Shown here: positions 55,700-60,476 of the stretch, in pieces
Position numbering within the stretch: the first letter of the stretch is position 1
Layout: the number at the start of each line of letters is the position of its first letter
Source of the DNA: Promethearchaeia archaeon
Lineage (GTDB): Archaea > Asgardarchaeota > Lokiarchaeia > Sigyniarchaeales > SOKP01
Direction of reading: 5' to 3'
Assembly (NCBI GenBank): GCA_029856045.1
Contig: JAHQWG010000016.1
Coordinates: 384,001-448,000, forward strand
Length of the DNA stretch: 64,000 nucleotides
Translations under genes and position numbers: made by a program
The notes under the pieces: model-generated
The model's database searches: none
What the model was told of the DNA's origin: nothing
What the model saw: only the letters and a program-made list of their open reading frames with translations

Positions 55700-56167
55700 T
55701 CATATTTTTAATTCAACCACTTTAAAAATTTCTTCAAATCCAAATTTAGTAAATAAACTCCTTACGTTTTCATCTAACTCCTTTTTAACAATGATTCTTA
55801 CAGAGTTAATATGGTTCTTTCTAAAAAAATCTATTGAGTACCTTATTAATTCTTCCCCTAAACCTTCTCCTCTATAATTTGGATCAACTATTAAGTTTGA
55901 AATATTTCCAAATAAAAATCCAAAATTTGTTTTTCTAATAGAAGCCAAAGCCATCCCTGCAACCTTGTTTTCCCTCTCGTTAATCGCAACTATCATTTCA
56001 TTCTTAACATCTTTCTTGAATTCCGCTATTAATGAGTGTTTCCATCTTTCCTCGTCAAATTCTTGATTTATTATTGAACATAATTGTTTCATAAGATTAG
56101 TAACTTCATCTGTATCTTTCTCCGTAAATGCACGAATTTGCATGATACTATATTTTTTTCCTTCCAA
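55700..56167 (-). CDS. GNAT acetyltransferase
   Basis: LIVDPNYRGEGLG and LFTKFGF. Confidence 0.88.
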   Translation of the reverse strand: MEGKKYSIMQIRAFTEKDTDEVTNLMKQLCSIINQEFDEERWKHSLIAEFKKDVKNEMIVAINERENKVAGMALASIRKTNFGFLFGNISNLIVDPNYRGEGLGEELIRYSIDFFRKNHINSVRIIVKKELDENVRSLFTKFGFEEIFKVVELKI

Positions 56168-56341: not shown

Positions 56342-57526
56342 ATGGAAAAAAAAGAAAAAGATGATTCACTTTCAGATGCTCTATCCGCATTAGGTTGGAT
56401 AGAGGAAGAGGAAGGCATAGAAAGCAAGGAAGAAATGCCATCTTCTTTAGAAGATCAAGTTAAATTCTTACTGAAAAAAAAAAAAAAATTAGAAGAACAA
56501 AATTTAATGCTCAAAAATTATATTGAACAGTTGGATTCAAGCTTATCTACAGCTGAAAAACCTGAAATCCCCAACGATTTTGAGTCAAAAATTAATGGAA
56601 AAGATGAAATTATTTCTAAATTAACGGTGGAAAGAGATGATATCAGCAAAAAACTAAAAGAACAAAGAGAAAAAATCATTTCCTTGGACTTAAAGGTTGG
56701 GGAGCAAAATGATCTATTGATTGAAAAAGATAAGCAAATTAATGAGTTTTCCTTAAATATTAGCCAATTAAATGAAAAGGAAAATTTAATCAAGCAACTT
56801 GAAGCAAAAATTAAGGAATTTGAATTAGGAAAAAATGGTATCAGTGAATTCCAAGAAAAAATAAAACAACGAGATACTCAAATTCAAGAACTTCATCAAC
56901 AAATTCAATATCTTGAGAAAGACACAATTCAAAAATCCAAGTATGATAAATTAAAAGTACTTATAGACAAGAAAGATGAGATTATAACACAAAAAGAAAA
57001 AGCTCTTTTTGATAAGGAAAACTCTCTCAATAAAGCAAAAGAAGAAATTCAAGAATTAATGGGAAAAGTTAAAGAAACAGAAAAATTTCACGAAAGATTG
57101 GCGGAAAAAGGTGAAGAAATTGATTTTCTTAAAGGGGAAATAGCTCACTTGAATCTACAACTTGAAAAATCCAAATCTTTGCAAAATAAAATTAAAGAAT
57201 TTGAAGAGCAACTTATTAAACGAGAAAGAGAAAATGTAGAAATCACTAAATCAAGCATGGCAAAAGAAGAAATCGTGAAAAGAGTTGAACAAAAACTCGA
57301 ATTATCTCAAAAAGAGGCTGTAAAAAAAGATATTGAAATAGAAAATTTAAAAATTAATTTCGAGAAAGAATTAGAAGCATTAAAGGTTAAAGAGAATGGT
57401 TATCTGGATAACATCCAAATCCTTAAAATGGAAAATTCTCGCATGGAACAGGAATCTGGAAAACTAAAAGACGAAATTATTGAGTTAAAAAAGAAAATTA
57501 AAGTTCTACGTAGAGGTAGTACTTAA
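56342..57526 (+). CDS. Long coiled-coil protein
   Basis: About 350 aa of K/E/L/I heptads with almost no Pro; no ATPase motif, no TM helix. Confidence 0.8.
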   Translation: MEKKEKDDSLSDALSALGWIEEEEGIESKEEMPSSLEDQVKFLLKKKKKLEEQNLMLKNYIEQLDSSLSTAEKPEIPNDFESKINGKDEIISKLTVERDDISKKLKEQREKIISLDLKVGEQNDLLIEKDKQINEFSLNISQLNEKENLIKQLEAKIKEFELGKNGISEFQEKIKQRDTQIQELHQQIQYLEKDTIQKSKYDKLKVLIDKKDEIITQKEKALFDKENSLNKAKEEIQELMGKVKETEKFHERLAEKGEEIDFLKGEIAHLNLQLEKSKSLQNKIKEFEEQLIKRERENVEITKSSMAKEEIVKRVEQKLELSQKEAVKKDIEIENLKINFEKELEALKVKENGYLDNIQILKMENSRMEQESGKLKDEIIELKKKIKVLRRGST

Positions 57527-57574: not shown

Positions 57575-57832
57575 CTACTTTTCTCTCCACACACAGCCAC
57601 AACTCCCACAAGAATACCTCTTCCCCCAAATTCGAGGGTAATCGAGAACGATCACTTCTTTATCGACGGATTCATGGATCATGTGCTTAAGTTCCTCACC
57701 ACATTTAGGGCATTTTCGGCGTCCCTCTGGTTTTGGAATAGTTAAAATGTCAGAGAACTCTTCTCTTGGAGGGGTGGTTTCTGGTTCAGTTTCTTTTTCT
57801 GGTTCTTTATTTTCTTCAGACATTTTGGTCAT
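57575..57832 (-). CDS. Stand-alone Zn-ribbon protein paralogous to the gelsolin C-terminal domain
   Basis: KPEGRRKCPKCG...IHESVDK...DYPRIWG.RY.CG.CG..W.EK aligns with the tail of 57990-58979. Confidence 0.85.
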   Translation of the reverse strand: MTKMSEENKEPEKETEPETTPPREEFSDILTIPKPEGRRKCPKCGEELKHMIHESVDKEVIVLDYPRIWGKRYSCGSCGCVWREK

Positions 57833-57989
57833 TATTTTTTATTTTGTATAAATATGCAATATTTATATCAAAATCATATTGGTTTACATATTAATCTTTA
57901 TGGGATTAATGACATTTATCTTAATTAAAAAAATAAAAAGAAATTTGAAATAAATAAAAAACTTTATTGCAGAATGCTATTTCTTAAGG

Positions 57990-58979
57990 CTACTTCTCAG
58001 ACCATTCAGTTCCGCATTCTCCACAACGATATTTATGGCCATAAACCCTTGGGTAATCCATTATTATATTGGTCTTGTCAACACTTTCGTGAATTTTAAA
58101 TTTATTTTCATTTCCACATTTTGGACACTTTCTTCTTCCAGTGGGTTTCTCTATTCTTAAAATCCCAGTTTCAACATCCATTGCAGTTGGGGTTGGGGGT
58201 TCTTTTATGGGTTCTATTACCATTTCAGGCTCCTTTACTGGTTCAGGCTCAAGTTCCTTTATCGGTTCAGGCTCAGGTTCCTTCATCGGCTCAGATATCT
58301 CTTCTTTCTCTAATGCAGATTCTGCTGAAAATTGGACATGTTCATCGACAGAGGTTTCAACTTTTGCTTCGAAAATTTTCATAAATTCTAAATCGTCACC
58401 TTCTTCAAAAATAACTTCATTTTGTGATCCTGCTCTTTCAGCATCAAAATTTCTTGCCCATTGTCCGGCTTTTACTTTTTCTCTGACATTAGAACTCGCA
58501 CCTTGCCAAATGTACATTTTATCGCCTAAATCTGCAATAAAACAATCTTCAGAATTTAAACTCTCTTTTTTAAACGGTACTTGTATAAATTTCATGGTAT
58601 TTATATCTTCAAACTCTTCAGAAGAGACTCTATAGAGTGTATTTACATGTTCTCCCGCACCTGACCAATCACCAGTATCTACATCTTTGAGCATAGTTTT
58701 TGCTAAATTTTTATCTACTATTTTCATTCCTCCAACAAGTTGTAAAAACTCTTTTATCTCTTGACCTTGATCAAGAGTTATAATTTTTGCAGCACCACTT
58801 CTTTGCTCATCCAATTCTCTAGCTTTCATTGCTGCAAATGTTTTTTCATCTACCGAGCAATATTTACCAAGCCATATATAAATGGTTTTTTCATCATCAA
58901 CAATATAAGTGTCGCCAGAACTGAATACTGGCTTATTCTGCTCTTTTAATTCACCCTTAGCAACCATACAAATTTTCAT
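57990..58979 (-). CDS. Two-domain gelsolin with Pro/Glu linker and C-terminal Zn ribbon
   Basis: FSSGDTYIVD..TIYIWLG...DEK, DQGQE; LYRV, SLNSEDCFIAD..MYIWQG..SNVREK; EPEP linker; two CxxC. Confidence 0.92.
   Translation of the reverse strand: MKICMVAKGELKEQNKPVFSSGDTYIVDDEKTIYIWLGKYCSVDEKTFAAMKARELDEQRSGAAKIITLDQGQEIKEFLQLVGGMKIVDKNLAKTMLKDVDTGDWSGAGEHVNTLYRVSSEEFEDINTMKFIQVPFKKESLNSEDCFIADLGDKMYIWQGASSNVREKVKAGQWARNFDAERAGSQNEVIFEEGDDLEFMKIFEAKVETSVDEHVQFSAESALEKEEISEPMKEPEPEPIKELEPEPVKEPEMVIEPIKEPPTPTAMDVETGILRIEKPTGRRKCPKCGNENKFKIHESVDKTNIIMDYPRVYGHKYRCGECGTEWSEK
58195..58295 (-). repeat. Degenerate 24-nt (8-aa) tandem repeat in the gelsolin linker
   Basis: EPMKEPEP-EPIKELEP-EPVKEPEM-VIEPIKEPP; recurring ggttcaggctc. 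Boundaries approximate. Confidence 0.7.
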
Positions 58980-59102
58980 ATAAAAAATACCTCATAAATT
59001 TTAACTTATATTTTTCTTATGTTTCTTTCAATATATAAATTTATATCAAAAAAATGCGTTTAAAATTAAAAAGATAATTGTGTTATAGTAAATCTCAAGG
59101 AC

Positions 59103-60476
59103 TTATTGATATTCACTAATAGCTTTTTTGATTCTTAAGACAAATTCTGGAATCTTTCTAATATCTATTGAGCTATATGCGATTCTGAAGCCGTTAATTC
59201 CTTCATTAGTTTTTTCTATGGGAATTACTCCAATTTTGTATTTTTTTAGCAACAATTCAGCAAAATCAGTCGCGTTGATGGACTTTAAATTGACAAATAG
59301 AAAGAAACCACCGCGATTAGGATCAATCGAAAATTGGTCACTTTTAATTGTATTCAATTCTTGGTTAAGTAAAATATACCTTTTTTCCAACATTTTTTCT
59401 ATTTTTTTACGATGCTGTAGGGTCTTTTCAATTTCTTGACTTGAGAGTAAAGAGTTAAGAATAGTTTGGTATAAAATATTTGAATTTGAGATTGTGCTTC
59501 TTATAAAACCTGAAAATTTATTTTCTATTTCAACTTTTAACTGTTCTAATTCAAGATCAGTTTTGATCCAATTTTTATGTATTCCTATAGTTAGTGCCCC
59601 TATTCTCCCTCCATACATTAATAATTCTTTAGTTATTCCATCTAACTTGATTGGAATGATATTTTCATCCAATTGAAATAGATCATAAAATAATGAGGTT
59701 TTTATTGCGTTTATATCAAAAGTATATCCTTCATAGGCATCATCACAAAAAATAATTAACGGTTTTTTATTTTGGACTACTATTTTTTTAAATAAATTTA
59801 TTAAATCAATACCCTCCTTTCTAGTTGGAATATATCCCGTAGGATTGTTTGGAATATTCAGAATTAAAATTATTTTATCTTGTACCCTTAATACATCTTG
59901 CATTGCTTTTTCTAAGCTTTTTAAATCAATACTATCTTCTGAGAAATAGTTAAAAGATTTTATTTTTGCACCAATGTTTTTTTCTATGATATTATCATAA
60001 TTTCCCCAACGTTTATTTGGCAAAATGATGTATTCATTCTGATTTAAGAACATGCTACAACATGTAAAAATCCCATGAGTAATCCCAGGTGTAAATAGTG
60101 TTAAAGTCAGATATTTTTCGAGATCTTTTAATGATTTCTTTTTGTTATCATCTAATTGCGATTTTTTAATAACCCAATCTTTCCATCTCTTTCTACTATC
60201 AGTTAAGCCAGGAATAGAGGCATAAGGTACGACATTAGTAATATCAGTATTGAAAAATTGTTTTATATTTTGTAGATAACAAGGAACCCATCGATCTCCT
60301 CCAGCCTCAATAAAATCTTTTTCAAAACCAAATACTGCTCCGATTGTTCCACTTATTTCTGCTTCTTTTTTTGCTCTTTCAGTCCAATAAAAAATACTTC
60401 TTGGTAAGAAAATCCTTTTTCCAACTTCAGAAAATGCCTTATAAATTGGAGTATTTTTAATTGTTTCAAATTCCAT
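59103..60476 (-). CDS. Class I/II PLP-dependent aminotransferase
   Basis: WGNY, NIPNNPTG, DDAY, DGITKE...GGRIG. Confidence 0.9.
   Translation of the reverse strand: MEFETIKNTPIYKAFSEVGKRIFLPRSIFYWTERAKKEAEISGTIGAVFGFEKDFIEAGGDRWVPCYLQNIKQFFNTDITNVVPYASIPGLTDSRKRWKDWVIKKSQLDDNKKKSLKDLEKYLTLTLFTPGITHGIFTCCSMFLNQNEYIILPNKRWGNYDNIIEKNIGAKIKSFNYFSEDSIDLKSLEKAMQDVLRVQDKIILILNIPNNPTGYIPTRKEGIDLINLFKKIVVQNKKPLIIFCDDAYEGYTFDINAIKTSLFYDLFQLDENIIPIKLDGITKELLMYGGRIGALTIGIHKNWIKTDLELEQLKVEIENKFSGFIRSTISNSNILYQTILNSLLSSQEIEKTLQHRKKIEKMLEKRYILLNQELNTIKSDQFSIDPNRGGFFLFVNLKSINATDFAELLLKKYKIGVIPIEKTNEGINGFRIAYSSIDIRKIPEFVLRIKKAISEYQ

Follow-up and report, generated by a model that had tools for sequence, protein, structure and literature searches.

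The 64-kb window analysed here is positions 384,001 to 448,000 of contig JAHQWG010000016.1 (GenBank assembly GCA_029856045.1), from a Promethearchaeia archaeon of the class Lokiarchaeia; unless a locus is named, all coordinates are positions in this window. Its minus strand carries both open reading frames studied: a gene for a two-domain gelsolin of 329 amino acids (aa) that ends in a putative C4 zinc ribbon (P0001, 57990-58979) and, directly downstream, an 85-aa gene encoding a stand-alone copy of the same ribbon (P0002, 57575-57832). Taken together, our results make it probable that this pair consists of a gelsolin of the Loki2DGel type, a zinc-ribbon docking module that it shares with many other proteins, and a genus-specific duplicate of the gelsolin tail that has been retained by selection.

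The gelsolin architecture and the docking idea have been published before, and the window gene is a new orthologue of the described architecture. Where Akil et al. (2022, Commun Biol, PMC9433394) treat the tail, Loki2DGel is described as having a pair of gelsolin domains followed by a Link of 69 aa and a domain that potentially binds Zn; the same domain is reported at the C-termini of unrelated proteins and in small Zn-only proteins, it is proposed to bind a cellular feature or complex, and the roles of the C-terminal tails of Asgard gelsolins are called unclear. A 2025 preprint on Lokiarchaeum ossiferum still considers the gelsolin extensions to be of unknown function. New are the adjacent free gene, found in one genus only and evolving under selection, a conserved operon of a Rab-like gene, a Zn-ribbon gene and a seven-transmembrane (7TM) protein gene, a Rab-like/Zn fusion in the genus of the window, and the grouping of the Zn domains by lineage. 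The preliminary description of this DNA had interpreted the ribbon as a modular docking or localisation tag. Its C-terminal position in nearly all carriers, the variety of its heads and its co-evolution within lineages agree with that interpretation, which was not novel, and what the description added to the literature is the adjacency of the two genes.

A Loki2DGel-type gelsolin with a zinc-ribbon tail

The gelsolin core with domains D1 and D2 spans approximately residues 1-205 (58365..58979, minus strand), as delimited by Pfam and by the match to PDB 7WHG chain G. The Pfam family Gelsolin (PF00626) is matched in two stretches of the protein (E value 1.8e-26), and comparison with the PDB aligned residues 6-204 with gelsolin, villin, and 2DGel structures. 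Between D1 and D2, the translation contains the Asgard WH2-like motif LKDV (residues 96-99), which aligns with LVDV of 7WHG chain G; in Promethearchaeota, this four-residue motif reads LVDV or LKDV. The core is followed by an acidic, Pro/Glu-rich Link (approximately residues 206-272, 58164..58364) that includes a 24-bp tandem repeat of 2.7 copies (58231-58294, Tandem Repeats Finder). Orthologues within the window's genus (hereafter g1) have lengths of 315, 321, and 329 aa, showing that the linker varies in length. The protein ends with the ribbon (residues 273-329, 57993..58163; stop codon 57990-57992), recognised by its CxxC...CxxC pattern and by a domain profile that matches residues 275-335 of 7WHG chain G with an E value of 3.9e-33. 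The repeat linker and C-terminal domain that the preliminary description had read from the letters are thus borne out by the translation, the DNA repeat, and the cysteine pattern.

P0001 matches the entry "Lokiarchaeota gelsolin (2DGel)" (7WHG chain G) from end to end (E value 8e-116) and is thus a full-length orthologue of the crystallised Loki2DGel. Homology predicts that it severs, caps, and sequesters actin under the control of calcium, activities that, in the biochemical part of PMC9433394, were demonstrated for the Loki and MKD1 orthologues only. Like Loki2DGel (KKK44901.1, PDB 7WHG chain G) and MKD1-2DGel, P0001 combines two gelsolin domains, the WH2-like motif, a long variable linker, and a (CxxC)2 ribbon. 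It differs from Loki2DGel in its linker, whose sequence is not conserved and which contains repeats of the PEP type, and in that in g1 a free copy of the ribbon lies directly downstream in tandem; genomic context is not given where PMC9433394 deals with the tail. The Thorarchaeota proteins 1DGelX and 2DGel (Akil et al. 2020, PMC7444086) are likewise Asgard mini-gelsolins, with or without a non-gelsolin C-terminal extension, but Thor 2DGel has no tail and the domain X of 1DGelX is a predicted coiled coil, not a Zn ribbon. The earlier remark that eukaryotic gelsolins carry no such tail is correct, although the tail itself was already known from Loki gelsolins.

The adjacent free ribbon gene is retained by selection

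P0002 consists of a Pro/Glu/Thr-rich, linker-like lead of 28 residues (57749-57832, minus strand) and a Zn ribbon (57578-57748) that is identical to the gelsolin tail at 37 of 57 positions (65%) in an ungapped alignment (BLASTP E value 1e-25), far beyond chance. The Zn-tailed gelsolin with a free ribbon copy next door is therefore as first described. At the DNA level, the small gene can be aligned with the 3' end of the gelsolin gene beyond the ribbon, upstream into the linker. A tandem 85-aa gene adjoining the gelsolin was found only in g1, with orthologues in two further genomes (G026 and G032), where it is placed, as in the window, between the gelsolin and a convergent coiled-coil gene. Because of the linker-like lead, the tandem position, the residues that it shares with the gelsolin tails of g1, and these tails being its nearest rows by tree path, the small gene is likely a partial tandem duplicate of the gelsolin 3' end, comprising part of the linker and the ribbon, which would have arisen in the ancestor of the genus. 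The g1 small genes form their own genus-specific clade (support 100/98). Synonymous sites between gelsolin tail and small gene are saturated, and the duplication is therefore old.

Across species, the ratio of nonsynonymous to synonymous substitutions (dN/dS) of the small gene is 0.12 at dS 0.68-0.73, compared to 0.12-0.14 for the gelsolin gene. Its frame is intact at 85 codons in all three genomes, with all cysteines and signature residues kept. These values point to purifying selection on a gene retained in working order. The possibility raised earlier that it is a recent partial duplication absent from relatives is right about the genus-restricted partial duplicate, but it is at odds with the purifying selection and with the presence of free copies elsewhere in the genomes of nearly all relatives.

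The intergenic spacer (57833..57989, minus strand) has an oligo-T tract past the gelsolin stop and an A/T-rich, TATA-like stretch before the small gene. The 12-mer TTTGATATAAAT occurs at 57861-57872, 29 nt upstream of the small-gene ATG, and at 59039-59050, 60 nt upstream of the gelsolin ATG, and exactly these two times in the window (0.2 expected). It is kept upstream of the gelsolin in two genomes of the same genus, whereas the small gene has it in the window's genome only; from its positions, it may be a promoter element shared by the two genes. A scan for sigma-70 promoters is inapplicable to an archaeon, and its result was disregarded.

Stand-alone Loki Zn proteins have been reported before (TFG08877.1, 64 aa; PMC9433394, Fig. 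1e). They consist of a single ribbon that is 60-70% identical and has all signature residues, whereas P0002 has 85 aa, a linker-like lead, and a place beside the gelsolin, not in the operon described below. In the family of MK-D1-like organisms (f2), genome G054 encodes a 66-aa free Zn protein (L036:4401-4601, plus strand) convergent with a 2DGel-Zn gene (L036:4751-5794, minus strand) at a distance of approximately 150 bp. With a convergent copy here and a tandem copy in g1, gelsolin-adjacent free copies arose at least two times and in different orientations.

A lineage-restricted ribbon at the ends of diverse proteins

All four cysteines are invariant in domain alignments of 11 (A1) and 45 rows (A2). 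Among 146 diverse representatives (A7), this holds for two of them, and the remaining two are kept in 90% or more of the sequences. The AlphaFold2 model of residues 22-85 of P0002, the ribbon 65% identical to the gelsolin tail, is an all-beta zinc ribbon (pLDDT 71.7). Its best fold matches are the ribbons of TFIIS, Rpb9/A12.2, and NrdR at noise level (Foldseek E values of at least 0.2, VIA Z scores of at most 3.3), and in the Pfam search no family was assigned to the domain, as every ribbon match stayed below threshold. With the C4 ribbons of TFIIS and Rpb9/A12.2, its closest but weak structural neighbours, the predicted domain shares the four cysteines and a three-stranded sheet, a similarity that is non-significant. 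It differs from them in a longer insertion between the knuckles (the DYPRVYGKKY hairpin), the lack of an acidic catalytic loop, and host proteins unrelated to transcription. As modelled, the fold neighbours offer no clue to function. Sequence and model agree with a lineage-restricted C4 zinc ribbon, predicted to bind zinc, that is used at the C-terminus as a flexibly tethered module.

The domain is present in 98 of 101 sampled genomes of the class and in all 84 genomes of the window's family (f1). A database search returned 608 longer proteins with the domain; among the top 120, nearly all are fusions to gelsolin with a length of approximately 335 aa, and in each of the first 131 matches the domain ends exactly at the C-terminus. 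Likewise, 242 representatives in a library clustered at 50% identity match, with 10 or fewer residues after the domain in 147 of the best 150. The listing of fusions by domain profile, which had been proposed as a check, yielded gelsolin, bona fide Ras, TPR, LRR, many coiled coils, and a 6-TM protein as heads, most of them without a Pfam family; the Ras+Zn fusion is one database representative (Pfam Ras, E value 2.2e-26). The 6-TM protein P0137 (L041:5001-6446, 481 aa) has approximately six transmembrane helices, a charged linker, and the C-terminal ribbon. A relationship of P0137 to the 7TM family of the operon was rejected (hhalign probability 2.9%), and its gene neighbourhood is uninformative. 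Five shorter candidates for further fusions (P0048, P0093, P0098, P0026, and P0081, 181-249 aa) were rejected as truncated gelsolins.

The genome to which the window belongs (3.34 Mb, 55 contigs) was searched as a whole. It encodes four ribbons of this type (type A), namely the gelsolin tail, the 85-aa gene, a 326-aa Rab-like+Zn protein, and a degenerate 69-aa free copy. The latter (contig 47, L003:1477-1686, plus strand) has lost the HES and W signature residues and is followed downstream by a pair of small, overlapping genes (205 and 166 aa). Four further proteins carry a sister type (type B), all C-terminally (L006:1498-2367, minus strand; L005:1288-1650, L007:850-1632, and L008:805-1635, plus strand). 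Type B, with the signature CPxCG..IKEVEDK..IYAKK.C.KCGYEF at the extreme C-terminus of coiled-coil proteins, is homologous to type A (hhalign 97.5%, E value 7.5e-12). In one type B host, the N-terminus contains a long polyproline tract, a possible binding site for profilin.

Free copies in an operon with Rab-like and 7TM proteins

Outside g1, the canonical free copy of 64 aa is found away from the gelsolin, in a co-directional set with short gaps in the order Rab-like, Zn, and 7TM. The operon consists of the gene for a Rab-like protein of approximately 200 aa, the Zn gene, and one or two genes for membrane proteins of approximately 236 aa, with a divergent EamA transporter gene adjoining. It was located on contig 9 of the window's own genome (L004:525-2472, minus strand) and in other genomes (L012:4790-6970, L013-L021). 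Coordinate lists compared by hand, which give lower bounds for both figures, place a Rab-like gene within approximately 400 bp upstream of a free Zn gene in at least 56 of the 84 genomes of the family, from ten genera, and a membrane protein gene within 5 kb downstream, mostly immediately so, for at least 55 of approximately 62 free copies among the matches listed.

The profile of the Rab-like protein (A3, positions 10-179) matches Rab12 (E value 1.6e-5), followed by Rab6, Arl3, and Rac1, indicative of a small-GTPase fold; a Pfam search gave no match at threshold. Neither the P-loop GxxxxGK[ST] nor the NKxD motif is intact, with GSNYEKS in g1, GADGSGI in genus g4, and GSRNSGKE in genus g2 in place of the former. 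Owing to these degenerate G motifs, the protein is classed as a Rab-like pseudo-GTPase and not as a GTPase. The AlphaFold2 model of the membrane protein has seven helices (pLDDT 89.2, pTM 0.87). The top 50 fold matches are all G protein-coupled receptors (GPCRs), both by VIA (Z 13.9-17.8; ADGRL3 with a root-mean-square deviation of 3.5 Å over 213 residues) and by Foldseek (E values from 8e-4, TMq up to 0.70). No Pfam family was found for it, and the lone sequence match, an opsin, is non-significant (E value 0.025). The predicted fold is GPCR-like, a likeness of fold that is no proof of a common function. A complex prediction for the Rab-like protein, the 7TM protein, the free Zn protein, and zinc scored 0.13 against a mark of 0.32 and counts neither for nor against an interaction.

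At the canonical locus of g1 on contig 9, a single gene upstream of the 7TM gene encodes a 326-aa protein in which a linker of approximately 75 residues joins the Rab-like domain to the Zn ribbon. This fusion is 84% identical in G032 and is also present in G026, where it is split across contig ends. The gene arrangement indicates that the ancestral free copy of g1 was lost to this fusion and that the free form now present in the genus is a new one, derived from the tail of its gelsolin, a loss and regain that fits selection for keeping a free form. If fusions arise by read-through into a small gene lying downstream, this would also account for the invariably C-terminal position of the domain and for linkers that share no homology between lineages. 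In the f2 genomes, neither the operon nor the Rab-like gene was detected, with gelsolin-Zn present; a divergent free copy lies approximately 10 kb from a 7TM gene with unrelated genes adjoining.

Zinc ribbons group by lineage

In f2, the Zn domains have IREV in place of IHES and DYPVIY or DYPLIY in place of DYPRVY, whether they are found on gelsolin, on a protein with a helical head, or free. Accordingly, f1 and f2 domains are split in the tree with 100/100 support, and a single clade of all gelsolin tails was rejected (log-likelihood difference 63, approximately unbiased test p 2e-13) in a comparison that was framed after the sequences had been inspected. The Zn domains thus group by lineage and not by host protein, with the copies in one cell kept equivalent. 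This may reflect gene conversion or re-derivation between the copies; alternatively, they may co-evolve with a single partner that all of them share. The helical-head fusions of f2 (L037:2477-3334 and L039:2529-3113, both plus strand) have a head of approximately 65 residues that is joined to the Zn ribbon by a long linker of charged repeats; the head resembled TPR or MIT helix pairs only below threshold and was assigned no identity.

Possible docking partners

The most likely explanation is that the ribbon docks all of its carriers, including gelsolin, the Rab-like fusion, the free proteins, and the coiled-coil and polyproline hosts of the sister type, onto one conserved partner. Free Zn proteins would occupy the same site on this partner, acting as competitors or adaptors, and the 85-aa gene would have arisen in the one genus whose ancestral free copy fused to its Rab-like neighbour. 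Several observations weigh against this explanation. Gene conversion or repeated re-derivation could yield the grouping by lineage with no shared partner, the ribbon model has only moderate confidence and generic ribbons as fold matches, and the deep nodes of the domain tree, which is based on approximately 55 columns, do not resolve the f1 free copies from the tails, so that the origin of the 85-aa gene from the tail is likely, short of proof. Moreover, in the experiments on the tail in PMC9433394, no co-sedimentation of the isolated Loki Zn domain with rabbit F-actin was seen, and a tail tagged with green fluorescent protein (GFP) was diffuse in human cells and not nuclear. If a common partner exists, our order of preference for it is the 7TM/Rab-like module, Lokiactin filaments, other Zn ribbons, and nucleic acid.

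We consider it possible, albeit rather unlikely, that the partner is the membrane module, i.e. the 7TM and/or the Rab-like protein, and that the ribbon couples a receptor-like complex to actin severing and coiled-coil scaffolds. The gene order conserved in the majority of the family's genomes argues for this, as do the Rab-like/Zn fusion of g1, which constitutes a Rosetta-stone link, the Ras+Zn fusion in the database, and the confident 7TM model with GPCRs as its 50 best fold matches. However, gene order alone is weak evidence of binding, and the Rab-like proteins are 23-52% identical between genera compared to 60-85% for the Zn domain, a poor fit for a tight pair. The lack of a detectable Rab-like gene in f2 alongside gelsolin-Zn, and the distance between free copy and 7TM gene there, also argue against it, and within the fusion the Zn domain is again attached to a 75-residue linker, as if targeted elsewhere. 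Still more speculatively, the ribbon might be the common plug of a Lokiarchaeal membrane-to-cytoskeleton system, in which 7TM protein, Rab-like protein, and free Zn protein form a dock to which tagged gelsolin, polyproline/coiled-coil proteins, and others are recruited, with the free Zn protein setting the occupancy.

Direct binding of the ribbon to the side of Lokiactin filaments, which would make the tagged gelsolin, coiled-coil, and membrane proteins all actin-associated and the free protein a small actin-binding factor, is in our view quite unlikely. Several heads are related to the cytoskeleton (gelsolin and the polyproline and coiled-coil protein), and such strong conservation of the domain hints at a target that is itself highly conserved. 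The absence of F-actin association in the published sedimentation assay opposes this proposal, as does the lack of likeness to any known actin-binding fold in our fold searches, but Loki actins are only approximately 59% identical to rabbit actin, and the negative result with rabbit actin is therefore not decisive.

We regard it as improbable that the ribbons bind each other as homo- or hetero-oligomers, cross-linking the tagged proteins with the free copy as a chain terminator. The copies within a lineage do change together, as expected of modules that recognise themselves, and in two lineages the gelsolin has a free copy next to it, with a different orientation in each, but small C4 ribbons are usually monomeric binding modules.

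We consider a nucleic acid-binding ribbon of the TFIIS/Rpb9/NrdR type, with the free copies as small RNA or DNA binders, very unlikely. The weak best fold matches and the basic isoelectric point of 7.8-8.8 given in PMC9433394 would fit this function, whereas the noise level of these matches, the cytoskeletal or membrane-bound nature of the heads, which are not nucleic-acid enzymes, and the non-nuclear localisation of the GFP-tagged tail do not.

Finally, the restriction of the 85-aa gene to one genus and its position directly downstream of the likely parent might suggest a non-functional leftover of a partial duplication, but this is hardly credible given its low dN/dS, the frame, cysteines, and signature residues kept in three genomes, and an A/T-rich upstream region of its own past the oligo-T tract.

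Neighbourhood of the gelsolin gene

Across genera, the gelsolin locus has retained the order of a 203-aa protein, an aminotransferase, 2DGel-Zn, and a convergent coiled-coil protein of approximately 400 aa. In the window, the latter is a 394-aa protein without a Zn ribbon (56342..57526, plus strand), convergent with the gelsolin gene and with only sub-threshold matches to coiled-coil Pfam families; of 11 gelsolin loci compared, the window included, 9 have a member of its cluster (cluster 5) next to the gelsolin. The upstream neighbour of 2DGel conserved across genera is a class I/II aminotransferase (59103-60476, minus strand). Further genes on the minus strand encode a GNAT acetyltransferase (55700-56167) and a Clp1-type P-loop protein (PF16575, 54394-55635).

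Implications for Asgard cell biology

The genomic context of the ribbon turns an unexplained gelsolin tail into a short list of testable partners. If the ribbon links the operon proteins to gelsolin, this would reveal how actin severing is directed to particular sites on the membrane of an Asgard cell, and a common plug between membrane and cytoskeleton, if real, would represent a receptor-linked route to local actin remodelling that is older than the eukaryotes.

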